Of a stretch of 64,000 bases of DNA, positions 25,243-62,607 are shown piece after piece (the first letter of the stretch is position 1; each line of letters begins with the position of its first letter). A model generated the notes under the pieces. It did no database searches. It saw only the letters and a program-made list of their open reading frames with translations, and was not told the DNA's origin. Origin of the DNA: a virus (taxonomy: Duplodnaviria; Caudoviricetes); the IMG/VR virus record IMGVR_UViG_2868227546_000002, positions 2,976 to 66,975 of that record, one strand, 5' to 3'. Position numbers and translations under genes: made by a program.

Positions 25243-25272
25243 ACTGTAGTTATTTATTAGGGGGTAAGCACG

Positions 25273-25506
25273 ATGAAATGTTTAGCTATGTGTAAAAGTT
25301 CGCCATGCATGGGTTGCGAACATAGAAGTATTGGATGTCATGATAAGTGTTCTAAGTACGGCGAATACAAAGCTATATTATATAAAGAATCACAAGAACG
25401 TATCGAACGTGTTAGAACATGGTATCCTAACAAGTCAGAAGCGTCAATTTGTGGACATAGAAATACATTTCATTCAAGACGTAGAGAGGTGGTGGCTACT
25501 CTATGA
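25273..25506 (+). CDS. small Cys-rich protein
   Basis: PC.GCE.R..GCHDKC..Y. Confidence 0.75.
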   Translation: MKCLAMCKSSPCMGCEHRSIGCHDKCSKYGEYKAILYKESQERIERVRTWYPNKSEASICGHRNTFHSRRREVVATL

Positions 25507-25667
25507 ATAGATTTCTTATCGGGGTAATGGTATCAATGCTACTGATTGCAATCACAGGCACAGTATTCACAGGTACAGACCGTCAATAGTGTCTAATGTT
25601 TATTGGATTTGTGATGTTTACTTGGGGCATTGCAGAAAGTTTATTATCAAGCAAGGAGAAATCATGA
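25503..25667 (+). pseudogene. two-TM membrane paralogue interrupted by an in-frame TAG (25587-25589)
   Basis: MNRFLIGVMVSMLLIAITGTVFTGTDRQ*CLMFIGFVMFTWGIAESLL aligns with the 25841 ORF (TACLLFLAGCIVILAIAESF). Confidence 0.65.
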
Positions 25668-25837
25668 ATAGTTTTTCAACAAAATACATTATTTCAATTA
25701 TTATACTCACTATACTTATTATCGTATTTAGAGACCCAGAGATTGCAGAAATCTTACGAAATTTATTAGGCTGTATTATCTTACTAGCTTTTGTAGAAAC
25801 AATGAATATTCTTTTAAACAAAGCAAAGGGAGATTAA
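25664..25837 (+). CDS. two-TM membrane protein (paralogue of 25841)
   Basis: SD AAGGAG, MNSFSTKYIISII. Confidence 0.75.
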   Translation: MNSFSTKYIISIIILTILIIVFRDPEIAEILRNLLGCIILLAFVETMNILLNKAKGD

Positions 25838-25840
25838 ATT

Positions 25841-26077
25841 GTGAATAGTTTTACCTTAAAGTATATAATCTCCATATTGGTCATTGGTGTTATTATGTTG
25901 TTTACTGACAATATAAAGACAGCATGTTTACTATTTCTTGCGGGGTGTATTGTTATATTAGCAATTGCAGAATCATTTACGGTTGATTGGGAAGAAACAA
26001 AAAAGGTGAAGAAGAATGAAACAACATATAAAAAGGTGGATGTATCTGTACATGTTTTACCTAGTCGCAATTCCTAA
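25841..26077 (+). CDS. two-TM membrane protein
   Basis: MNSFTLKYIISIL. Confidence 0.75.
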   Translation: MNSFTLKYIISILVIGVIMLFTDNIKTACLLFLAGCIVILAIAESFTVDWEETKKVKKNETTYKKVDVSVHVLPSRNS

Positions 26078-26197
26078 CTTCTTTGTTACTAATAGTGTAA
26101 TCAAATTAGGTTTAATAGGTATTATGATTTTTCTATTGATTATGTTCTATCGGTCAACGGTAGATAGAATCTATAGAAAAAGATAGGAGGAATCATA

Positions 26198-26551
26198 TTG
26201 TTATCAGAATATGGAAAGACCTTGCGGAAAATACGCATAGATAAGGGCTTGACGATGGCACAAATGGCAAAAGCCGTTGGCATTACATCGGCATATTTGT
26301 CAACGATAGAACGAGGTAATCGAAAAATTCCAAAGAACCTAACTCAAAATATTATCGGTCATTATGAGTTATCCAATGAACAAGTTGCAGAATTACAAAA
26401 AGCAGAACTTCAAAGTATGGATAGTCTTGAGATTGAATTATCAGCTGTTAGCCTACATAAAAAGACTTTGGTGTTGTCGCTTGCAAAGAATCTAAAGAAT
26501 ATGACATACGAACAAGTCGCAAGGATTAAAAGCATTATGGAGGAAAACTAA
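26198..26551 (+). CDS. XRE-family HTH transcriptional regulator
   Basis: LRKIRIDKGLTMAQMAKAVGITSAYLSTIERGNRK. Confidence 0.92.
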   Translation: MLSEYGKTLRKIRIDKGLTMAQMAKAVGITSAYLSTIERGNRKIPKNLTQNIIGHYELSNEQVAELQKAELQSMDSLEIELSAVSLHKKTLVLSLAKNLKNMTYEQVARIKSIMEEN

Positions 26552-26721
26552 TGGATATACATATGTGGGTATCAATCGTGAATGTGCTGCTAGCTTTCAC
26601 AGTAGGTGCATTAATGGCGAGGGATACAGACTTGCCTATATGGATTTTGAGTTTAGTGTATTTTGTAGTAACAACATTAGTACATGTAGTTGGACTTTAC
26701 ATCTTTAGTATAAAACCGTGA
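26551..26721 (+). CDS. small two-TM membrane protein (56 aa, not in ORF track)
   Basis: SD GGAGG, TAATG overlap with the XRE stop, hydrophobic. Confidence 0.65.
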   Translation: MDIHMWVSIVNVLLAFTVGALMARDTDLPIWILSLVYFVVTTLVHVVGLYIFSIKP

Positions 26722-26775
26722 GATACTTTCTTGCTTTAAAATCTATAGGATAAGGCATAGAAGAATAGGAGAATT

Positions 26776-27201
26776 ATGGCTAAAGAATTAAGCGACATTA
26801 GGTATAGTCTATCAAGAGTGTTAGATAAAGTTTCAACGTTGTTTTATATATCTAAATTAAAAGGCAATCTATTAATGAGTGAATTGCTAGACAATAGTAG
26901 GTTGATGTTGTTCCAATCTACCTATAGCAATCCACTTAATTCTTGCTCAAGTGAGATTTGCAATAGTAGTAATATTTTTGAATTAGACGGCGAATATCTG
27001 TTGGTTTGGGGTAGAGCAAAAACAGCGCTTATCGTTATCAATCATATTACGCAGAGTTGTCAAGACAGTAAGTACATTGATGAGATTAAAGAAGTCGAAG
27101 AAGAATTATCTTTAATTGTTGATGAAATGGAAGATTTTATCCGTTTGGTAATCGTTGATATTGACAGTATTGAAGAATCGGAGTTAAATGTGATATCATG
27201 A
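26776..27201 (+). CDS. helical hypothetical protein
   Basis: SD AGGAG. Confidence 0.7.
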   Translation: MAKELSDIRYSLSRVLDKVSTLFYISKLKGNLLMSELLDNSRLMLFQSTYSNPLNSCSSEICNSSNIFELDGEYLLVWGRAKTALIVINHITQSCQDSKYIDEIKEVEEELSLIVDEMEDFIRLVIVDIDSIEESELNVIS

Positions 27202-27551
27202 CAGAAAAAGAACTTGTTGAATACATTCAACATAGACTTGACGAGATAATTGACGTTATTGAGCGTGCAATTGAAAATGGAGATGGTGACTTTGAAACAA
27301 ATTGTCTCTATAAGTATCTAATCATGCAATGCAATAGCACAAAGAGTTTTGTCGGAATTGCGTCAACGAGACCGTGGCGTAAAAAAGATTTATGCAGAAT
27401 ATATCATTTAATTTACAACTCTATGCTATCTATTGATTTGCTTTTTGAGTACGAAAAAGATAATTTTGGATACTACGAGTACACAGACTTGGATGAATTG
27501 TTGACAGATTGCATGCAAACGTTAAGCGGTCAAATGTTATTAACACAATAA
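27198..27551 (+). CDS. helical hypothetical protein (resembles 27573)
   Basis: I.HRL.E..DV...L.Y.I..C. Confidence 0.7.
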   Translation: MTEKELVEYIQHRLDEIIDVIERAIENGDGDFETNCLYKYLIMQCNSTKSFVGIASTRPWRKKDLCRIYHLIYNSMLSIDLLFEYEKDNFGYYEYTDLDELLTDCMQTLSGQMLLTQ

Positions 27552-27572
27552 AATCTCTTAAATAGATAGAAA

Positions 27573-27950
27573 GTGGGTGAAACAATGACAAAAGAATGGA
27601 AACTTAGGGTGATATATCACAGGTTGACAGAAACAGTTGATATTTTTAGATACAATCAAAAATCATATAAAGGCGAGGGAATAGAGTCAATATGTGCATT
27701 AAGATATGCTATTACAGTATGTAAAGTTGTGAAATCAATTGTTGATGAGATACAGAATAAGAATAAGCAAGGGAAAGAACTTGTCGAACTTTTGTATTTA
27801 TCAAAATTTATTCTACACGGGATTAATGAGACAAGTTATTACGTACCGTATAGATTAGAAACTGGAGACTATTCAATAGTTAAAGAGAATTTTGAAGTGT
27901 GCATTGATGCGCTAGATAGATTAATTAAATCTTATGAAGAATGCGACTGA
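27573..27950 (+). CDS. helical hypothetical protein
   Basis: IYHRLTETVDI...LRYAITVC. Confidence 0.7.
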   Translation: MGETMTKEWKLRVIYHRLTETVDIFRYNQKSYKGEGIESICALRYAITVCKVVKSIVDEIQNKNKQGKELVELLYLSKFILHGINETSYYVPYRLETGDYSIVKENFEVCIDALDRLIKSYEECD

Positions 27951-28004
27951 CAATAAGTAGCCGTGTGATATATTCATGTGGCTATTATTTTTATAAATAA
28001 TGTA

Positions 28005-28092
28005 TTGACAAAAATAAATAAAACATGGTATTATATACGTGTAGGTAAGCTACACGTTATTTATTTAAGCTAAGTCAGAAAGAGGTATCTAT
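28005..28092 (+). promoter_or_regulatory. early-type promoter plus conserved leader
   Basis: TTGACA-18-TATTAT, GTGTAG..CTACAC hairpin, GTTATTTAT (28056), SD GAGG. Confidence 0.8.
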
Positions 28093-28533
28093 ATGACAAA
28101 GAAAGAACTCGGCGATAAAATCAAATATATAGAACGAGAGTATTTGCTAACACTAGGAATATATCAATTAAGACGGCTTAATGAACTAATGGATACACTC
28201 AGCATTAGACATCCACAGTACGACCAGCTAGAAGGATTCATTGGGTTTGTAAACAGTAGACTGCAAGCGAACGAAGAACTAAAGAGTTATTTGCATTCGC
28301 TAACACCAAACAAAGATGTACTTGATGAGATATATTCAGCTGTAGAATGCAGATTTTATATTCATCTGAAAGATTCGTTCGTTCGTGGCGCAGAAGATTT
28401 TCTTGATACTATCAGCTGGAGACATCCACAGTATGACGCGCTGGAGGAAGCTATTAAGTTTGCATACGAGCAATGTGAACAGTGGGATGATTTGTTAAAC
28501 TACGTAGATTCAGAATTGGGTGGCTACTGTTAG
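28093..28533 (+). CDS. protein made of two tandem repeats
   Basis: TLSIRHPQYDQLEGFIGF and TISWRHPQYDALEEAIKF. Confidence 0.75.
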   Translation: MTKKELGDKIKYIEREYLLTLGIYQLRRLNELMDTLSIRHPQYDQLEGFIGFVNSRLQANEELKSYLHSLTPNKDVLDEIYSAVECRFYIHLKDSFVRGAEDFLDTISWRHPQYDALEEAIKFAYEQCEQWDDLLNYVDSELGGYC

Positions 28534-28580
28534 GAGTAGCTACTAAGGATAACGATTAGAATTATGTAAAAGGAGAATGA

Positions 28581-28982
28581 ATGATGAGTGAGTCTGTTGA
28601 TAAATTTGAGTTAGAAGCACATTATCTATATGAAAATACGCCCAGTAAAAACCGTAAACTACGGGCACTTCTGTATCCAACAGAGGTATATGACGCATTT
28701 AACAATCTCATAGAAAAAGGTGCAAAAAGACCTGCGACTGTTTGTGCTTCTATGTTGAGATATATTGAAAAGATTGAAACCAATGGATTTAGAGAACCTG
28801 CTGGAGATGTCGAACTGAAACCATACATTTTACACAATAAAAACAAAAATAAAAAGAGAGTCTCTGTATGTATTCCAGTGGAACTATTAGAGAGATTTGA
28901 GGGGTTAGATGTACCAACAAACAACACCTTAACATACACATTAGCTATGTATGATTACTTATTAAGTAAAGGGGAGATGTAG
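28581..28982 (+). CDS. putative ribbon-helix-helix DNA-binding protein
   Basis: KRVSVCIPVELLERFE strand-helix pattern. Confidence 0.45.
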   Translation: MMSESVDKFELEAHYLYENTPSKNRKLRALLYPTEVYDAFNNLIEKGAKRPATVCASMLRYIEKIETNGFREPAGDVELKPYILHNKNKNKKRVSVCIPVELLERFEGLDVPTNNTLTYTLAMYDYLLSKGEM

Positions 28983-28983
28983 T

Positions 28984-29349
28984 ATGACAAAAGGCGAAGA
29001 ACGAGCGGTTATTTTGAAGAATTGCAAGCAAAAAACAAAAATGTGCTTACTAACTGTACCAAAAAAACTAAAGGATTTGGTTGCGAAAGTAAGCAACGGT
29101 ATTCCTGGAACGCAAGCAGTAATTATTGCTATGTGTGAGTACTTAGATGATGAGAATAGCAACACCAGCAATTCCGCAGATGTGGAGCTTAGAGCGATGA
29201 TTGAGTGGGAAATAGCAGAAGAAAAAACTAGATACACCATTAGACTTCCGATTAGCTTAGTGGAAGAATTTTTCAGTTATAACCCCGAAAAGACTAGCAC
29301 AGTAAAATATAATGAAGCTCTTTGGGGCTATGTGTTAAGGAGAAGTTAG
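28984..29349 (+). CDS. putative tandem RHH DNA-binding protein
   Basis: LLTVPKKLKDLV and YTIRLPISLVEEF. Confidence 0.45.
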   Translation: MTKGEERAVILKNCKQKTKMCLLTVPKKLKDLVAKVSNGIPGTQAVIIAMCEYLDDENSNTSNSADVELRAMIEWEIAEEKTRYTIRLPISLVEEFFSYNPEKTSTVKYNEALWGYVLRRS

Positions 29350-29526
29350 TAGCTATATTCCAATGATAGAATGTAACAAGAGTAAAAATATGATTCCAAA
29401 TTCAGCTGGTCTATTCTGTAAAAATGTAAAACAGAAATCACAGCATAACAAACTCTTTAGTGCGCTAAAGAAAATAAAACAAAAGAAATGCACCAAAAAG
29501 TATATAACTTTAGGTGCATTTTTAGT

Positions 29527-29841
29527 TTATTTAGTTACGTTTTTGTCTTGTTCTGAGTCTCCGTAGTAATTATTTGTGATGTATGTATTTTGATTGTTTT
29601 GCGTGTTGTCGCCACTTTGTTGAATTGTCTCAATATTGTTTTGAGTTGCTTCTCTTTGTCTTTCTAAAACATAAGAAATTAAAACATCACGAATAGCAAT
29701 ACTCATAGATTTTCCAACTGGAATAATTTTCAAAAAATCATCTCTTAGTGACGCTGGGATTCGTGGATGAATTGATACCAGCTGTTCATCTGTAGTGTAG
29801 TAATGATACATTTTTAAATATTCATAATCCAAATCTTCCAT
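29527..29841 (-). CDS. putative RHH DNA-binding protein with low-complexity Q/N tail
   Basis: SD GGAGG before ATG 29841; SIHPRIPASLRDDF...SMSIAIRDVL. Confidence 0.6.
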   Translation of the reverse strand: MEDLDYEYLKMYHYYTTDEQLVSIHPRIPASLRDDFLKIIPVGKSMSIAIRDVLISYVLERQREATQNNIETIQQSGDNTQNNQNTYITNNYYGDSEQDKNVTK

Positions 29842-30816
29842 AGATTCCTCCAAAAATCCAAAATCCAATATTCCAAATTTAAAAAACAGAAATTTAAAAA
29901 ATAAGAAGTAAAACCAAATTAATAAAACTGTAGAAATACTATTTGTTATAAATGCAGTATTTTAATCAATAAGGCTTCCCTAGTATTGTTGACGATAGAA
30001 TGTACCTATGGAGAAATAAACGTATGTAGAAAGGCTGCGTAGATAATTCTACAGGTTATTTTGCATTTACATATATCACAGGGTTATTTTATCGTGCTAT
30101 TATTGTCGTAAGGTTATTTTTTGCCTATATACAAGAACACCCCATTAGTTACCTAACGGGGGGAATCTTGCGTTATTTATAAGCCGTGGTTAATTCCACG
30201 CCAGAAAGGAAACGTACAAAGTTATAATCGTGATGGAAATGGAACACGATTATAACGTATCAGTACGTTACGTGTATATAATAACACAGTGAATATACTC
30301 TTGTCAATACTTCAATGATAAAAACTGAATGTTTTTGCCAAATATTTTTATATCAATAATTATTTCAATATTTGCTACACAAAAGTATTTAATTTGATGT
30401 ATCTTTAGACTAGCAGCATAGATGAATACCACAAGGGAAATATCTATCCGTGCTGGTGCTTGGTGAGACATCTATATAATTTTTACCAAGTGCGATATAC
30501 TATAGGTAAAAAATAAATCGTATATAGTTTTTAGAAATCACTATACGCTATGAATTTTTGATACCTCTATAGGATATATAGCACCCCTATATAGGCTATA
30601 TGATGCGCCCCTATAGGGAGTTTTCTAGCCTTATATATTGGCGACCCTCGAATTCTTTAGCGGACTAAAGAATTAATTAAATGTTTAACTAAATAGATTG
30701 GAAATTTTTTAAAATTTTGCTTGACTTTTTAGCTAATCCGTGATATTTAAATAATAACAATAAATATAGCTCACTTTAAACTTAGAAAAAAGCTATAAAT
30801 TTTTATAATTTATCTA

Positions 30817-30913
30817 TTGACAAATATATACAAGTGTGATATAATAAAAGTGTAGTAAGGAAGTACTACATAGTTATTTATAAAGCTGGTACACCAGCGG
30901 GAAGAGGTACACG
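30817..30913 (+). promoter_or_regulatory. early promoter plus conserved leader (unit 1)
   Basis: TTGACA-17-TATAAT; GTAGTA/TACTAC hairpin; GTTATTTAT (30873); GCTGG/CCAGC hairpin; SD. Confidence 0.9.
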
Positions 30914-31156
30914 ATGACAAAACAACAAATTAAAAAACAAGCGCAAGACTTCGCAATTCAAGTAATGACAATGCGCCACAATTATGATGAGGTTCAAGAG
31001 TTTATCAATAAGGCGGAGCTAGAATTGTTTGACGGCGAAAGTCTTGAGATTGCAGAGTTTACGGCGCGTAACTTATTCCCCGAAGATGAAAGCGACGCGT
31101 TGGACGATGAGCAATATTTGCTCAATTGCTTACAAGTAATTGAATACGCTTGCTAA
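30914..31156 (+). CDS. early acidic protein
   Basis: Monocistronic unit; terminator AGCGGTGG/CCACCGCT at ~31161-31196. Confidence 0.8.
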   Translation: MTKQQIKKQAQDFAIQVMTMRHNYDEVQEFINKAELELFDGESLEIAEFTARNLFPEDESDALDDEQYLLNCLQVIEYAC

Positions 31157-31278
31157 TATGTAGCGGTGGTTGCCTTATGGTTGCCACCGCTTTTTTGTAT
31201 CATATATATGAATACATGAGTATATAAATCAAACGATATAAACTCATAAAAAATATACAATATTTTATAATTTAAGTA

Positions 31279-31385
31279 TTGACAAAGTAATATAAACAAT
31301 GTATAATGTAATTAAAGATAAGGGCAAGAGAAAAGCCCTACAAGTTATTTATAAGCAGGGTAAACCTGCAGAAAGAAGGTACAAA
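31279..31385 (+). promoter_or_regulatory. early promoter plus conserved leader (unit 2)
   Basis: TTGACA-17-TATAAT; AGGGC/GCCCT hairpin; GTTATTTAT (31344); GCAGG/CCTGC hairpin. Confidence 0.9.
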
Positions 31386-31745
31386 ATGGAATTACAGGAA
31401 ATGACGGCAGAACAAACAGCCGTATACAACTACTTAATAAGTCAAGTTGACTATACAGCAGAAGAAGCAACGGAAACAATCGAGCGTGGAGAGTATTCTG
31501 TATTTGAAAATATCGAAAATGCTTTAGAATACTGGGCGAATGTAGAAGGATTTGAAATTCCAGCGGGCTACACGGCAGATGTAACTGAAATATGGTTAGG
31601 CAACTTAGAACACGACCACGATTTATTAGACAAGTCTCCATCTTTAGGCTTGAGATACTCCGACAATGAAAGTCGAGCGGAGTATATGCACCAGCTAGAA
31701 AACTGCTTGCATGAAAGCCGTATTATTTACCTATACAATCAATGA
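31386..31745 (+). CDS. acidic ArdA-like protein (putative DNA mimic)
   Basis: EQ..VY.YL.....Y..EEA.E....EYSVFE..E; paralogue of 31846. Confidence 0.5.
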   Translation: MELQEMTAEQTAVYNYLISQVDYTAEEATETIERGEYSVFENIENALEYWANVEGFEIPAGYTADVTEIWLGNLEHDHDLLDKSPSLGLRYSDNESRAEYMHQLENCLHESRIIYLYNQ

Positions 31746-31845
31746 TATAAAAGCGGTATCCGCCGCCAGCACGTCAAGCGGTTAGGCGGTGGAATGTATT
31801 AAATAGTTATTTATTTAAGCCAATATATACGGCAGGAGGTTTATA

Positions 31846-32220
31846 ATGGATTTTGAAAAATTAGATACAGAACAAAAGGAAGTTTATAGTTGCTTGGTCG
31901 ACTCTATAGGCTATGATGAAGATGAAGCCTATGAGATAGTATCAGAATATGAGTATTCTCTATATGATAGTTTTGAAGATTTTATATATAACTCTATAGA
32001 ATCTAACGGCTGGAATATTCCCGACTTTATAGAGTTTGATTTTGTTGGGATGTGGTTGCATACATTCTCACAATACTATAGCCAGTACAACTTTATAGAC
32101 TACCCAAATTTCAAACGCAGTCCGAATTACCTATATAAAGACGAGCCAGAATATAAACATTGGAAGTTTTATTTTCTTGATATAATCAAAGATAGTAGAT
32201 TCTTAGAAGTACATAGATAA
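31846..32220 (+). CDS. acidic ArdA-like protein (putative DNA mimic)
   Basis: GYDEDEAYEIVSEYEYSLYDSFEDFIYNSIESNGWNIPDFIEFDF resembles the ArdA C-terminal consensus. Confidence 0.55.
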   Translation: MDFEKLDTEQKEVYSCLVDSIGYDEDEAYEIVSEYEYSLYDSFEDFIYNSIESNGWNIPDFIEFDFVGMWLHTFSQYYSQYNFIDYPNFKRSPNYLYKDEPEYKHWKFYFLDIIKDSRFLEVHR

Positions 32221-32232
32221 GGGGGCGAAGAA

Positions 32233-32532
32233 ATGACTAAAAAAGAACATCAAGAAATAATAAACAATATTAAAAACCAAATAGAAGAAAAAGCCTATCG
32301 AACAAACAACAATATAGAATCATACTTTGTAGACTTTGACGGATTGGCGATACTGGAAGAATTACATACGATTGTAAAAGACCTATCGTTTTGTACTACT
32401 GGTATACACCCGTGGCGTGATACGTTTGATAAAATGGAGCGTATGCTGGAGGATATAAAAGAGGAAATTCAAGACCTAAAGTATGACGTAATAACAGAAG
32501 TACAAGAATTTCTTGATGATATCAACGTTTAG
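32233..32532 (+). CDS. early acidic helical protein
   Basis: SD GGGGG; terminator CGGCGGG/CCCGCCG at ~32617-32645. Confidence 0.75.
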   Translation: MTKKEHQEIINNIKNQIEEKAYRTNNNIESYFVDFDGLAILEELHTIVKDLSFCTTGIHPWRDTFDKMERMLEDIKEEIQDLKYDVITEVQEFLDDINV

Positions 32533-32684
32533 GCGGTGAAGCATGCTGAGTCTATTTATAGTGTGGTTGATGTACCAGTATACAAACAGCAGATAAAACA
32601 AATCAAAAGAGATACAACGGCGGGAATACACCCCGCCGTTTTTCTATTGTCAATAAAAATAAATAATATTTTATATATTTAGTA

Positions 32685-32780
32685 TTGACGAAGTATAATA
32701 AAAGATGTATACTATAAGTGTAGTAAGGAATGGTACTACATAGTTATTTATAGCAGGTGTAACCCTGCGGGAGGTATCAC
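32685..32780 (+). promoter_or_regulatory. early promoter plus conserved leader (unit 3)
   Basis: TTGACG-17-TATACT; GTAGTA/TACTAC; GTTATTTAT (32743); GCAGG/CCTGC; SD GGGAGG. Confidence 0.9.
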
Positions 32781-33020
32781 ATGGAAACAATCACAATTAA
32801 TAGAAGCGAACTTTTAAAAACTATCGTGGAGAGACTAGTTAAAGCAGATAAGTGGCTAGAGGAAGCTAGAAAAGAAGATGGAACTATTAATACGGATTGC
32901 TTAGCATTTGTTGAGTTTGCAAGAAGTTCAACAATAGCAGACGCATATATTGAATTGGGAGGCTTTACAGATTGGGAAGTTGCTGACGCTGTGGAAGAGT
33001 TAGAAAAGGCGGAGGCGTAA
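32781..33020 (+). CDS. early acidic protein
   Basis: Follows the unit 3 leader. Confidence 0.8.
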   Translation: METITINRSELLKTIVERLVKADKWLEEARKEDGTINTDCLAFVEFARSSTIADAYIELGGFTDWEVADAVEELEKAEA

Positions 33021-33024
33021 AGTC

Positions 33025-33618
33025 ATGGAATACAACTATATGGAATTAACAATAAGCATTCACGGCAGACCATTCTTTTATAGAGTGAGAAACGACCACA
33101 ACAGCTATATTATTACACTACATCATATTATTGATGGTGTATATAAATATGCTGGCGTTGACTTCGGTATTATTTTAGAGGGTGAAATAGAAAAAGAAAT
33201 CAAAGAGAACGCGAACGATGAAAATTATACACCGTTCCCGACCCTTGAAATGTTTAAAGAATTAGGGGAGGAACTTGTTATAAGCGGTTGTGATGTATTT
33301 CCTGTGCGTTACCAGTTCGACAACTTGCGGGACTTTGTAGACTATCTAAGAAAATTCCCGCTTGAGATTGTCAAAGTAAACAAATACAATATATATACTT
33401 TAGAGGGGAAAAGCATTTATAGAGTTTTTTACGTTGATGAGTTTAGCGACTACGGTTATAGTTTAATTTGTGAAATCCAATCAGAAATAAACGATGAAAA
33501 TTTATATAATGAATTGGATAGTATCAATACAGATAATGCCGTAGAAATAATACTTGGTGGAATTAAACAAGTATTAGCACGTTACGGCTACAAGCTAACA
33601 GAAATGATTCCACATTAA
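33025..33618 (+). CDS. early acidic protein
   Basis: 197 aa; terminator ACGGCGGT/ACCGCCGT at ~33624-33658. Confidence 0.75.
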   Translation: MEYNYMELTISIHGRPFFYRVRNDHNSYIITLHHIIDGVYKYAGVDFGIILEGEIEKEIKENANDENYTPFPTLEMFKELGEELVISGCDVFPVRYQFDNLRDFVDYLRKFPLEIVKVNKYNIYTLEGKSIYRVFYVDEFSDYGYSLICEIQSEINDENLYNELDSINTDNAVEIILGGIKQVLARYGYKLTEMIPH

Positions 33619-33725
33619 TTACAACGGCGGTTAGTCCTACAGATTGACCGCCGTTATTGTCGCCAGCTTGCAAGCTGTTGTATAATATAATCGTAAACAA
33701 TCTGTAAGTTTTTATAATATAGATA

Positions 33726-33835
33726 TTGACAATTAGACATAACTGTAGTATACTGTAATTAAAGATAGGACATCAATTGATACCATACATGTTATTTATA
33801 AGTGCTGAAACATACCAGCAGAAAAGAGGTGCACG
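33726..33835 (+). promoter_or_regulatory. early promoter plus conserved leader (unit 4)
   Basis: TTGACA-17-TATACT; GTTATTTAT (33791); GCTG/CAGC hairpin; SD GAGG. Confidence 0.85.
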
Positions 33836-34156
33836 ATGGATATAGTAATAAACCTAAATATGACTAATAGCCAAATATTGGCAATCGTTCAAAGTATAAC
33901 AATTGGTAAAATAGACTTTGACAGCCTTAATCGGGAAGATTCAAACGATGTTTTATACATCATGAATCAAGCATATAAAACAATATTGTTAGAGGTTGAG
34001 AATTTAAGAATACGATTGTCAAACCCCGACTATTCAGCCGATTATATTCGCAGTGGGATTCAGTCGGGGGAGTATGATTTTATAATGAATCTAACCACGA
34101 CAAGAAACAATAGCCCCGCGAACTTTGGTAATTATTTTGTAAAATTAAGAGAATAA
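33836..34156 (+). CDS. early hypothetical protein
   Basis: Terminator GCGGTAACA/TGTTACCGC at ~34162-34193. Confidence 0.75.
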   Translation: MDIVINLNMTNSQILAIVQSITIGKIDFDSLNREDSNDVLYIMNQAYKTILLEVENLRIRLSNPDYSADYIRSGIQSGEYDFIMNLTTTRNNSPANFGNYFVKLRE

Positions 34157-34492
34157 AAACGGCGGTAACAGTCAATAAGATTGTTACCGCTTTGTTATAT
34201 CATATACATGAATACATGATAATATATCATAATGATGTACGATACAGCAGTATTCTCATTTAGATAAAACATTCTCAAATACAAAACTCTCTTATTTGTG
34301 TTATAAGGCTTATGACGGCTGTTTTAGGTATCATTATATTAGGCGACTATAGAACGCCTTATAGAGTGTATCGGGCACATTATAGCAAATATGATATATC
34401 ATTCATGTAATAACTATAGCATAAATAGTCTATAGGGTGGGTTTTATAGATTTAATCTATATAATGTTACATTAGTTTTTATAACTTCAGTA

Positions 34493-34593
34493 TTGACAAA
34501 AGTATATAATAATGATATACTATAGATGTAGTAAGGAATGGTACTACATGAGTTATTTATAGGGCTGGTGCATACCAGCAGAAAGAGTATAAT
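34493..34593 (+). promoter_or_regulatory. early promoter plus conserved leader (unit 5)
   Basis: TTGACA-17-TATACT; ATGTAGTA/TACTACAT; GTTATTTAT (34552); GCTGG/CCAGC. Confidence 0.9.
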
Positions 34594-35187
34594 ATGGAAA
34601 TTCAAACAATTGAACAAACTTTATACGAAATCTTGCCAGCACATTCAGTACGTGAAATGGTTGAGCAATACAACGGCGACCCGTTCAAGGCGTTATTTAC
34701 AGCAGATATTTCTGAATGGAAAAACACAAAAGGAATAGGCTCAGCAGGACTTCGCAAGGTTAAGGCTTTGAAAGCAATCATTAACGGCTTTCAAGAAAAA
34801 AGAACGAAAGAGCTTATAGACGCCTCAACACCCGAAGCCGTATACAATACAATGCTTGACATGCAGTATTTACAAGTGGAGCAATTTCGAGCGGTATTCT
34901 TAAATGTGAAAAACAAAATAATAAAAACTGTTACTATTTCAAGCGGTGGATTGATGGGGTCAGTGGCAGAACAACGGAGTTTATTCCGTGAAGCAATCAA
35001 GGCTAACGCTGGGGCTATTATCCTTGTACATAACCATCCATCGGGAGACCCTACAGAGAGTGCTGATGATGTACGAGTAACTAAAATTATGGTAAAAGCT
35101 GGGGAAGTGATGGGAATACCAGTATTAGACCATGTTATTATAGGCGATGGGGTATACACCAGTTTATGCGAAAAAGGTATCATATAG
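34594..35187 (+). CDS. radC: RadC/JAB-domain protein
   Basis: HhH-like KGIG, EQFRAVFLN.KN, HNHPSGDPTES.DD, LDHVIIG. Confidence 0.95.
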   Translation: MEIQTIEQTLYEILPAHSVREMVEQYNGDPFKALFTADISEWKNTKGIGSAGLRKVKALKAIINGFQEKRTKELIDASTPEAVYNTMLDMQYLQVEQFRAVFLNVKNKIIKTVTISSGGLMGSVAEQRSLFREAIKANAGAIILVHNHPSGDPTESADDVRVTKIMVKAGEVMGIPVLDHVIIGDGVYTSLCEKGII

Positions 35188-35279
35188 GACGAAAAACAAG
35201 CGGTATTATTACCGCTTGTTTTTATGTCTACACATATAGAATCAATAAAAAAATATTACTATCTTTTATATATTAAGTA

Positions 35280-35383
35280 TTGACAAAGTAGCATAAATAA
35301 TGTATAATATAATTAAAGATAAGGCAATAGAGAAATTGACAAAGGTTATTTATAAGCAGGGCAAGACCTGCGGGAGGTATCAG
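35280..35383 (+). promoter_or_regulatory. early promoter plus conserved leader (unit 6)
   Basis: TTGACA-17-TATAAT; GTTATTTAT (35345); GCAGG/CCTGC; SD GGGAGG. Confidence 0.9.
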
Positions 35384-37821: not shown

Positions 37822-38310
37822 TAACTATAGATTACAACAAAGTGATGAACCTGTAACAGATAACCTACAACAGTTCACTTGACATACTATAAGAATTGAC
37901 TTGAAAAGTCATTCAGTGAAACTGAATCAAAACTAAAGGTTAAGAAACAATAAGATATAAAACTATAGATAAGTAACATATAGATATAACATTGAAGATA
38001 ATCTATAGATGAATCTATAGATATGAAACCTATAGATAAAACTAAAAGATGTAACCTATAGATACATCGTAGAGATAGAATCTATAGATTACACCTTTAG
38101 CTGGTCTTTAGATTGTAATTACTAGATAGCCTATAACAGTTTACCTTGACTTGCTCCTATATGATATATCTATAGATAGTCATAGAGACTGTATCACGAC
38201 AAAGCCTATAGACTGTATCTATATGGTACATTTACATATAAGATAATCTACAATAGTATGCTTTGACTTGGAAACTATAGATTGTATCTATATGATAGCC
38301 TAGTATAGAA
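37822..38310. repeat. degenerate CTATAGAT array II, opposite orientation to array I
   Basis: aactatagat, aatctatagatg, aacctatagata, atctatagatt etc.; no long ORF. Confidence 0.75.
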
Positions 38311-38593
38311 ACTCATAGATAACATAGGATAGTCCAGAGCAGAAGAATACCCAAAACCAAATCATTTCATTGCCTGTACCATCATCCCAAGTGGCTTCAT
38401 CACTAATAGCCAATAGGATGGCAAAAAATGAGTACACAAAACATAAAATAGGCGCAATGATAAGTCCTTTTTCAACAATCATATAGATTCCAGCCAATGC
38501 AACAAATACAGCATGTGGAATCACCATGATTCTAAAGCTAAAGGAATACATCAAGACTGCATAGGCAGCATGAATCAGCAAGATACCAAACAT
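38300..38593 (-). CDS. multi-TM membrane protein
   Basis: SD AAAGGAGG, mostly hydrophobic. Confidence 0.75.
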   Translation of the reverse strand: MFGILLIHAAYAVLMYSFSFRIMVIPHAVFVALAGIYMIVEKGLIIAPILCFVYSFFAILLAISDEATWDDGTGNEMIWFWVFFCSGLSYVIYEFLY

Positions 38594-38654
38594 ATAAATT
38601 TTCCTCCTTTATGTGAAAATAGACCCTGTGAAATTCAGCAGGGTCATTTTTACG

Positions 38655-39188
38655 TTATAACGCCATTTTACCGTACACGGTATCATTCATAACATCTTCT
38701 GTTATGCCAATGTATCTGAGTGTATGTGATTCGCTAGAATGATTCAAGGCTTCCATGATATAGGCAATAGGTACTTTGAGTACATTATAGGCGTAATATC
38801 CAAATGTTTTACGCATTGTATGTGTACCAATGTCATCAACACCAGCTTTTTTGCCAGCAGTTTTGATAATCTTGTAAGCCTGTGCATAGCTTAACGGTTC
38901 ACCAGTCTTTGACGGGAATAACCATTCGCCTTTACAGTACATTTCAATATACTCAAGCAATTCACTATAGAACGAATCAGATAACTGGAAACGTTTGATT
39001 TTCCCTGTTTTTTGTTCTTGTAATTCTATTGTACGTTTAATATCAGATACTTTCAAGTCTAAGATGTCACTGATACGTAGACCAGTGTTAAGTCCTAAGC
39101 GGAATAACATCTTGTTACGGATACCGCCTAGATTGTCGATAACTTGATTTAATTTATCTTTGTCTTTAATTGGTTGTACTGTTTTCAT
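38655..39188 (-). CDS. small tyrosine recombinase (catalytic domain only, resolvase-like)
   Basis: TGLRISD, EQKTGK, HTMRKTF, LNHS...TLRYIG. Confidence 0.93.
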   Translation of the reverse strand: MKTVQPIKDKDKLNQVIDNLGGIRNKMLFRLGLNTGLRISDILDLKVSDIKRTIELQEQKTGKIKRFQLSDSFYSELLEYIEMYCKGEWLFPSKTGEPLSYAQAYKIIKTAGKKAGVDDIGTHTMRKTFGYYAYNVLKVPIAYIMEALNHSSESHTLRYIGITEDVMNDTVYGKMAL

Positions 39189-39221
39189 TGCATGTCTCCT
39201 TTAATAAATAACTTTACGTAA

Positions 39222-39251
39222 ATTATAACAGAATTTATTATAAAATGTCAA
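39222..39251 (-). promoter_or_regulatory. promoter of the recombinase
   Basis: Minus strand TTGACA-18-TATAAT. Confidence 0.7.
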
Positions 39252-61959: not shown

Positions 61960-62607
61960 ATGACTTTGATTCAAAGAATAATTGAACTAGCCAAAGCAAT
62001 CGGAAATGATATTAAGACCCTAAAATCTAGGGTCTTAACTCTTGAAACAAAGCAGAATGGAACGCAAGGACAAACAACGGAAAAGAAGTATGTATATCGA
62101 ACACCAAAAGGGGCATCATGGCTGAATGGTAACAGCTACATCCAGTTGACACGCATTGGCAATTTAGTGGTTGCTGGGGCAGACGGAGATAGTTATGCTA
62201 CTATCTCAATTACTCCACCTACAGACTCCAATTTTAATAAGTTGCCAAAACGTGAATCTACTGTTGATGGTAAAGGCGGAACATGGCTACAAATACAAAA
62301 GCCAAATAACAGTGGTGGTTTTCAAAGCAACTTCATTATCCCAGAGGGATTCGCTCCTGTTAAGTCAACATATGGAATGATAGTAAACGACAATGGTATA
62401 CCAGTAGCAACTGTCATGTTCGGTGACAAGGCGAATCAACGCTTGATACGTATTCATTTTGATGGGATGGGTAGTGAGGCAAGAGGAAAGTTCCCTACTA
62501 GATTATTGCGATTAGGTACCTGCTCGTGGATAACAGAAGATGACCAGCCAACAAAAGAGTTCAACAACAACGATGGAATACTACAGATTCAAACCGTTAA
62601 TAAATAA
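61960..62607 (+). CDS. fibre protein with the same N-terminal anchor as 61498 and a beta-rich head
   Basis: AIGNDIK; LTRIGNLV...IPEGFAP. Confidence 0.65.
   Translation: MTLIQRIIELAKAIGNDIKTLKSRVLTLETKQNGTQGQTTEKKYVYRTPKGASWLNGNSYIQLTRIGNLVVAGADGDSYATISITPPTDSNFNKLPKRESTVDGKGGTWLQIQKPNNSGGFQSNFIIPEGFAPVKSTYGMIVNDNGIPVATVMFGDKANQRLIRIHFDGMGSEARGKFPTRLLRLGTCSWITEDDQPTKEFNNNDGILQIQTVNK

Follow-up and report, generated by a model that had tools for sequence, protein, structure and literature searches.

A conserved nine-nucleotide motif at the ribosome-binding sites of phage early genes and a predicted antisense small RNA that may recognize it

We analysed a 64,000-nucleotide stretch of DNA (hereafter, the window) that covers positions 2,976 to 66,975 of IMG/VR record IMGVR_UViG_2868227546_000002, a virus of the Caudoviricetes. 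In an island of early genes within this window, the nine-nucleotide motif GTTATTTAT recurs in one leader after another. Its RNA form, GUUAUUUAU, is best explained as the invariant core of a modular 5′ untranslated region (UTR) that is attached to almost every early operon, and a role as an RNA-level control element at the ribosome-binding site is well supported. Opposite one leader copy that has no gene we find a conserved locus for a predicted antisense small RNA (sRNA), with unpaired segments complementary to the motif and to the Shine-Dalgarno (SD) sequence. The best current mechanism, to which we assign a probability of roughly 0.4, is that this RNA serves as a master anti-leader sRNA that would block translation of all the early operons.

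Distribution and placement of the motif

The window belongs to a temperate phage of approximately 69 kb that is integrated in its host (contig C3, approximately 100,000–169,300). It holds 12 copies of GTTATTTAT versus an expectation of 2.2 ± 1.6, and none of 100 shuffled sequences reached 12. Across the entire 1.87-Mb genome there are 30 copies, compared with 43 for a reversed control pattern, and those outside the phage are chance matches in coding sequence. Eleven of the 12 window copies lie in a 5′ UTR on the coding strand, 15–36 nt ahead of the start codon; for the gene-less copy at 30172 the nearest ATG is 52 nt away. The ten plus-strand copies listed in a preliminary description of this DNA all occur at the exact coordinates given there, and that observation of a motif is confirmed as real. 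The other two copies are on the minus strand. The one at 39204 is an eleventh true leader, with a consensus promoter upstream and a small recombinase gene (38655–39188) downstream, and the one at 62600 looks like the only chance-like occurrence. Besides this addition, the earlier list of leaders must be amended in that the copies at 25249, 30172 and 31806 lack their own promoter, and the one at 30172 has no gene either.

Leaders are built in the order AT-rich upstream element, promoter, 5′ hairpin, 9-mer, GC hairpin, strong SD sequence and ATG. The promoter consists of TATTGACA, a spacer of 17–18 nt and a −10 box that matches TATAAT at five or six of its six positions. As had been proposed, seven promoters (28005, 30817, 31279, 32685, 33726, 34493 and 35280) share an AT-rich upstream element; they match 10–12 of 12 consensus positions. 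The hairpins and strong SD sequences of the earlier account were also all found. There are two main kinds of 5′ hairpin (types A and B), and the GC hairpin begins 1–4 nt past the 9-mer, with compensatory changes in its stem (GCTGG/CCAGC, GCAGG/CCTGC and CGTGG/CCACG). Anything from 21 to 36 nt can separate the −10 box from the motif. The position of the motif follows the ribosome site and not the promoter: it always lies just 5′ of the SD sequence or one variable GC hairpin away. Its orientation tracks the direction of transcription on both strands.

Conservation among related phages

Relatives were located through homologues (49–92% identity, on phage-sized contigs) of a 113-amino-acid protein, and ten syntenic loci were fetched. 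The gene for this protein (29527–29868, minus strand) shares its strand with the antisense RNA and lies approximately 260 nt beyond it in the downstream direction. By eye, the protein looks like a ribbon-helix-helix regulator; a Pfam search with it returned nothing. Among these ten relatives the motif, with at most one mismatch, follows 52 of 68 distinct strong early-island promoters, and most of the promoters that lack it have the shortened GTTATTAAG or GTTATTATAAG instead. When leaders are anchored on the motif core, sequence information in the flanks is almost zero, while the six-base core GUUAUU is strict and the 3′ part of the motif is looser. The flanking hairpins vary in sequence and retain their folding. 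A 5′ hairpin is present in 79% of 75 distinct leaders; among the 60 whose spacer is 10 nt or longer, 77% have a 3′ hairpin (mean z-score −2.9 relative to shuffled sequences, with many different stem sequences); in 15 of the 75 leaders the motif directly abuts the SD sequence with no downstream hairpin. The intercistronic junction at 25249 carries the motif in all nine relatives that cover it, once as GCTATTTAT, and the recombinase leader keeps it in each of the eight relatives for which the retrieved DNA extends that far. The sets of early-island genes between the conserved cassettes, by comparison, differ among the ten relatives.

Beyond this clade the arrangement was not recovered. No near matches were present among phage records. 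IMG/VR relatives identified by terminase (62–64% identity, 66–71 kb; terminal repeats in four of the five that were classified) show neither enrichment of the motif nor a cassette island, and they share no other leader motif in its place; use of the RadC-like early gene as an IMG/VR query gave no relative. Pattern scans for the exact motif plus hairpin in IMG/VR and in species genomes returned only single chance matches in coding regions. When the island DNA was compared with 121 genomes of the host family, the host radC gene alone matched; two short promoter-like matches in host-family genomes were checked and are unrelated. A literature search for the 9-mer returned only unrelated primers.

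Host use of the motif does not exceed chance, with the exception of one gene leader. Moreover, the complement of the motif is absent from 16S rRNA and from the other rRNA contigs even when one mismatch is allowed. Because rRNA has no complement and host genes lack the motif, it is not a general host enhancer. The exceptional leader precedes a 119-amino-acid XRE-type regulator gene (G000:C7:45466, minus strand, L325 2926–2990; also G006:C3:158774), where GTTATTTAT is followed by CTATAGAT, a repeat that is arrayed in the phage. Its conservation spans two species, and it could be a target in the host or a remnant related to phage.

A predicted antisense RNA opposite a gene-less leader

The gene-less leader copy (30132–30300, plus strand) comprises a hairpin, the motif at 30172, a GC hairpin, an SD-like AGAAAGGA and a 12-bp hairpin, and contains no conserved open reading frame (ORF). 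It is present in all 11 phages and falls into three sequence groups. The antisense RNA that faces it is new here. This predicted sRNA of approximately 140 nt (30128–30271, minus strand) has a five-part fold with a z-score of −5.6. It starts with a long bipartite hairpin and ends in a terminator hairpin that carries a U-rich tail. A second hairpin stands between these two, with an unpaired CU-rich UUUCCUUUCU on its 5′ side and an unpaired UUAUAAAUAACG on its 3′ side; the former is an anti-SD sequence and the latter is the anti-motif. Its promoter (30278–30307, minus strand) reads TTGACA, an 18-nt spacer and TATTAT with a TG, is preceded by an AT-rich upstream element like that of the early promoters, and is kept in every relative and in the stand-alone copies described below. 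Rfam searches gave no match, either at the gathering score or at E values up to 5.

The locus, its promoter and its architecture are found in 11 of 11 phages, although the hairpins differ between the three groups. In each phage the minus strand folds better than its complement, by 5.5–16 kcal/mol, and where hairpin substitutions produce G·U on the minus strand, the plus strand would have A·C. Fourteen distinct sequences were aligned with a covariance model; their terminator helix is 100% paired and includes invariant or frequent G·U pairs as well as two compensatory pairs. Together, these G·U pairs and the fully paired terminator helix indicate that the minus strand is the selected RNA. Strand and structure were judged from folds of individual sequences and from the 3′ half, as the 5′ half lost register across groups in MAFFT alignments. 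The most conserved parts of the sRNA are the unpaired anti-motif and the terminator, whereas the hairpins change; an unpaired segment conserved amid changing hairpins is the pattern that a seed region would usually produce. Judged in silico, the locus is a discrete predicted small-RNA gene with its own promoter, its own terminator and a conserved structure on one strand.

Three copies of GGTTATTTT (plus strand, 30055, 30083 and 30114) lie just upstream of the gene-less leader; read on the minus strand, they add a further three AAAAUAACC stretches, past the sRNA terminator and ahead of the 113-amino-acid gene. They are present in the group I and group II loci that were inspected (the window, L236 and L237) and absent from four inspected group III loci. 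Group II phages contain a repeated intergenic element of approximately 200 bp (reverse-complemented L237, positions 12153, 14715 and 16555; L247, position 10025), in which ATAAATAAC, the motif complement, stands on the gene strand right after a −10-like box. This element might encode a further anti-motif RNA or a 23-codon ORF on the minus strand. The DNA from the antisense promoter to the first early unit (30310–30800) is non-coding over approximately 500 bp and contains CCCTATA(G)G-like words in several copies; the relatives also have a long non-coding stretch at this place, with other repeats.

Stand-alone copies of the small RNA gene

A covariance model of the sRNA identified it in only two of 24 species of the host genus, and nowhere else among the 121 host-family genomes or among genomes of three other families sampled at the level of the order; a scan of JGI metagenomes with a strict terminator pattern returned nothing. 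Stand-alone genes lie on contig C45 of G006, the second of the two species, and on four metagenome contigs (G006:C45:2761–2855 [L253], L292:2040–2133, L272:394–482, L273:3799–3887 and L289:4195–4283). Each has its own extended −10 promoter and a terminator, along with further compensatory changes. These copies adjoin pnuC and restriction or defence operons. For example, one neighbourhood includes SNF2, DUF4391, an N6 methylase and a ResIII endonuclease, and another an Eco57I-type methylase with ResIII/T5orf172.

The stand-alone copies cut both ways. They identify the sRNA as an independent gene with a conserved seed, yet the seed is kept where there are no local targets. A more far-reaching idea is that the sRNA is a sequence-addressed immunity device, by which a prophage would silence the early mRNAs of itself and of superinfecting relatives, and that the stand-alone copies would be an RNA-only anti-phage defence directed against the leader motif of this clade. 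We consider this improbable.

Predicted pairing with early leaders

When the sRNA is co-folded with each leader, the anti-motif pairs with the motif and the next 3–5 bases, and the CU-rich stretch pairs with the SD region. Both hairpins are kept, giving a four-way junction over the ribosome site. The mean energy gain is −11.4 kcal/mol for leaders of the window, compared with −5.8 kcal/mol for 54 other ribosome sites, and each of the 11 phages gives a similar contrast when its own sRNA is folded with its own leaders (approximately −12.2 versus −6.1 kcal/mol for other ribosome sites). Two weaker points would also speak for genuine pairing. In groups I and III, the leaders match the sRNA of their own group over a longer stretch than they match those of other groups. 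In addition, substitutions in the motif are biased, with about five A-to-G changes at two A sites and about three U-to-C changes at six U sites (hand count, binomial p of approximately 0.03), and an A-to-G change retains a G·U pair with the sRNA.

In the mechanism that we favour, the motif would be the address for a phage-encoded antisense sRNA of approximately 140 nt, transcribed from the consensus promoter at 30307–30278 (minus strand) across the gene-less leader copy. Its two unpaired segments, with one of its own hairpins between them, would bind the SD sequence (CU-rich segment) and the motif plus 3–5 bases (anti-motif). Such pairing would keep both hairpins, form a four-way junction and cover the ribosome site, and one RNA might in this way switch ten or more early mRNAs. 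Possible uses include early shut-off, silencing in the lysogen and immunity. The analysis shows the motif, its conservation and its tie to the ribosome site, together with the conserved promoter, structure, strand and complementarity of the antisense RNA; production of the sRNA, action in trans and a repressive effect are what we infer.

Several observations weigh against this mechanism. There is some circularity in the complementarity between leaders and sRNA, since the latter lies antisense to a leader paralogue, and the group-matched extensions could have arisen through concerted evolution of the cassettes. The 9-mer duplex is AU-rich and, taken alone, weak (approximately −5 kcal/mol). Group II fits poorly: its sRNA (L237 and L247) reads ACAAAUAAC, many of its leaders have GTTATTTAT, GTTATTCAT or the shortened GTTATTAAG, and contiguous pairing averages only 7.4 nt. 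Stoichiometry is also a concern, with one sRNA gene for ten or more equally strong promoters. The flanks of the stand-alone copies contain no GTTATTTAT leader array, nor does the G006 genome, and the anti-motif may therefore serve some other target or a role in cis. Finally, the minus-strand RNA could be an attenuated leader of the downstream 113-amino-acid gene.

Alternative explanations

The strongest competing explanation, although we rate it as unlikely, is that the motif is recognized by a protein. It could be an RNase Y processing site, with cleavage after the G, an AU-rich stretch next and a GC hairpin a few bases on, so that the 5′ hairpin would be removed and the stability of the mRNA determined, or it could be the site of an RNA-binding translational regulator from phage or host. 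In published work, RNase Y cleavage depends on a G upstream of the site, on the sequence that directly follows it and on a GC-paired hairpin a few nt beyond (PMC11321564, PMC5449607). The leader layout is compatible with these determinants in 77% of the 60 spacer-bearing leaders, and the host encodes RNase Y (785 bits). A strict GUUAUU core with a looser 3′ part would suit reading by a protein, as would survival of the motif in stand-alone sRNA copies that have no target array. However, the RNase Y consensus is weak in B. subtilis (PMC11780869), and a near-invariant 9-mer therefore exceeds what this enzyme needs. The known modules of S. aureus (saePQRS and gapR; PMC5449607, PMC11321564) resemble the leaders in their G, AU-rich stretch and downstream GC hairpin, but they share no fixed 9-mer, and one fifth of the present leaders (15 of 75) have no downstream hairpin. 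The motif is not enriched in host leaders and thus is not a general host signal, and no candidate RNA-binding protein of the phage was identified.

Alternatively, the motif may merely be an AU-rich enhancer of translation, or a standby site for ribosomes, with no dedicated partner and with hairpins that act as spacers or stabilizers. Such a role would suit its constant place beside the ribosome site, either immediately or through an intervening hairpin that draws the two together, as well as the very strong SD sequences of the leaders and the SD-like AAGGAA loops of many 5′ hairpins, which might be stabilizers. Nevertheless, AU-richness alone requires no invariant sequence across 11 phages, and the lack of both a complement in rRNA and a motif in host genes makes this explanation improbable.

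It is less probable still that the motif is without function and hitch-hikes in promoter-leader cassettes that duplicate and recombine, in the manner of the promoter-early stem-loop cassettes discussed below, or that it is a DNA operator for a repressor. The cassettes in the window are indeed 78–86% identical over 85–145 bp while the genes between them are unrelated, and the gene content between cassettes varies among relatives. However, the 9-mer is retained where its flanks are nearly random, and it also occurs outside the cassettes, at the intercistronic junction, in the recombinase leader with its different promoter layout and at the stand-alone sRNA loci. The orientation of the motif with transcription is unfavourable to both versions. 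An operator was rejected outright, as there is no conserved palindrome, the distance to the promoter is variable and the motif is bound to the direction of transcription.

The preliminary description had proposed either a nut-like antitermination site or coordinated post-transcriptional control. The latter idea and the anatomy behind it hold and are now backed by conservation in ten relatives, whereas we find the nut/boxA version scarcely credible. In that version, boxA (bound by NusB/NusE) and a boxB-like hairpin would carry polymerase through the terminators between units. In its favour, a short conserved single-stranded box beside a hairpin in promoter-proximal leaders, and the order of 9-mer then hairpin, recall lambda boxA-boxB and rrn leaders; G-T-TTT is common to the motif and host boxA, and terminators do stand between some units. 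Comparison with the host rrn leader, as had been suggested, goes against it: that leader has the typical Firmicute GATCTTTGAAAAC, with which the motif agrees at only 5 of 9 positions. This poor match, together with a position that follows the ribosome site at a variable distance from the promoter and the copies between cistrons or directly before SD sequences, leaves the nut reading unsupported. The motif is also absent from the more distant relatives (62–64% terminase identity). Furthermore, unlike lambda nut sites or rrn boxA-boxB, it occurs once per operon in ten or more operons, and because every unit has its own strong promoter, read-through is not needed.

Individual leader units

The intercistronic copy (25249–25272, plus strand) has no promoter and consists of a stop codon, 6 nt, GTTATTTAT, an SD sequence and the ATG of a gene for a 77-amino-acid Cys-rich protein. 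The numbered units that follow are all on the plus strand. Unit 1 (27956–28092) comprises a terminator, the upstream (UP) element, the promoter at 28005, a 5′ hairpin, the motif at 28056 and an SD sequence. Unit 2 (30817–30913) and unit 3 (31279–31385) both have promoters that match at 12 of 12 positions. The former continues with a type A 5′ hairpin, the motif at 30873, a GCTGG/CCAGC hairpin and an SD sequence, and the latter with a type B leader, the motif at 31344, a GCAGG/CCTGC hairpin and an SD sequence. In unit 4 (32616–32780), a terminator (32616–32640) precedes the promoter at 32685, a type A hairpin, the motif at 32743, a second hairpin and the SD sequence. Unit 5 (33726–33835) has its promoter, a type B leader, the motif at 33791, a GCTG/CAGC hairpin and an SD sequence. 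Unit 6 (34161–34593) begins with a terminator (34161–34191), has its promoter at 34493, a type A hairpin, the motif at 34552, another hairpin and an SD sequence, and is followed by the RadC-like gene. Unit 7 (35280–35383) again has a 12-of-12 promoter and a type B leader, with the motif at 35345, a GCAGG/CCTGC hairpin and an SD sequence. The leader of the 177-amino-acid tyrosine recombinase (39189–39251, minus strand) has TTGACA, an 18-nt spacer and TATAAT, then the motif (39204–39212), an SD sequence and the ATG. Of the GC-rich terminators attributed earlier to the units, only four clean plus-strand examples (27956, 32616, 34161 and 36226) are predicted.

A promoterless leader (31752–31845, plus strand) with a long GC hairpin, the motif at 31806, a weak hairpin and an SD sequence lies between two paralogous genes. 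These genes (31386–31745 and 31846–32220) encode tandem acidic proteins of approximately 120 amino acids each. The GC hairpin in front of the second has no U tract, and the arrangement is kept in relatives. Type B leaders (31279–31330, 33726–33780 and 35280–35330, as well as those of relatives) all start with an identical AUAAUUAAAGAUAAGG. In the loop of most 5′ hairpins that are not of type B there is an SD-like AAGGAA or AGGGAA, which may stabilize ribosome binding as STAB-SD sequences do, or may offer a second site of recognition.

The phage and its early island

Across the prophage, GC content falls from approximately 40% to 33–38%. Its left flank is host RNase PH/Ham1, and on its right a 453-amino-acid tyrosine integrase (C3:167852–169213), the main integrase of the phage, is followed by host metabolic genes. 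Besides this integrase the phage has an HK97-type portal/terminase module. Replication genes occupy 1–24 kb of the window and head and tail genes 40–64 kb, with the leader island in between. The island genes are small and mostly orphans, with one RadC-like protein among them, and are best explained as small orphan genes and genes of the anti-defence type.

At the left end of the prophage (C3:100125–103424, immediately to the left of the window) are a gene for a 148-amino-acid helix-turn-helix (HTH) protein and, on the minus strand, one for a 1041-amino-acid protein of the DNA polymerase III alpha type. A 355-bp inverted repeat of 92.7% identity links window positions 38275–38628 with contig positions C3:94690–95042, and a second copy of a 97-amino-acid phage gene, the neighbour of the small recombinase gene, lies approximately 5 kb outside the left end. 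A tRNA scan gave no hits.

Comparison with known systems

The cassettes are an analogue of the promoter-early stem-loop (PeSL) cassettes of T4-type phages, not a member of that class. Both combine a repeated sigma-70-type promoter, an AT-rich upstream element and a stem-loop (PMC2839356, PMC4122927), and both flank orphan genes in a variable region whose content differs among relatives. However, the phage studied here is a temperate phage of approximately 69 kb with a low-GC, Firmicute-type host and not a T4-type myovirus. Its leader is a structured 5′ UTR with an invariant 9-mer by the ribosome site, which is not described for PeSLs, and is matched by a predicted antisense RNA.

For the sRNA, the closest parallels are in antisense-RNA immunity. 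The c4 RNA of phages P1 and P7 is one such system. Another is the CI RNA of P4, which pairs with seqA and seqC (PMC4825925). Like these, the predicted sRNA is a phage small RNA whose complement recurs in the leaders of early genes, which it would hold off. For the P4 and P1 RNAs there are two such sites, both within a single operon, and their action is through premature termination or on one gene. The predicted sRNA, in contrast, would address ten or more operons next to the ribosome site through bipartite pairing, is placed under its own promoter opposite a decoy leader, and matches no Rfam family.

Small RNAs of the RoxS, RsaE and RNAIII type in Firmicutes use C-rich seeds to pair with SD sequences. 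An unpaired CU-rich anti-SD stretch and an intrinsic terminator are likewise present in the predicted sRNA, and the host has no Hfq. Unlike those RNAs, to which it has no sequence or Rfam relation, it has a second, AU-rich seed 20–25 nt away that would confer specificity for phage leaders.

Implications for phage biology

Even if the link to the sRNA fails, the leader is a well-defined and strongly conserved RNA element, and its motif is a handle for locating early genes in this phage clade. If the proposed mechanism is true, then one small RNA that reads a shared address would be a very compact means of timing or silencing a whole class of genes, and the presence of an identical 9-mer in the leaders of unrelated, fast-changing early genes would be explained. 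It would also amount to RNA immunity of the P4/P1 kind scaled to ten or more operons and exerted at the ribosome site. Moreover, the stand-alone copies beside restriction systems raise the idea that bacteria may borrow such an sRNA as a defence.

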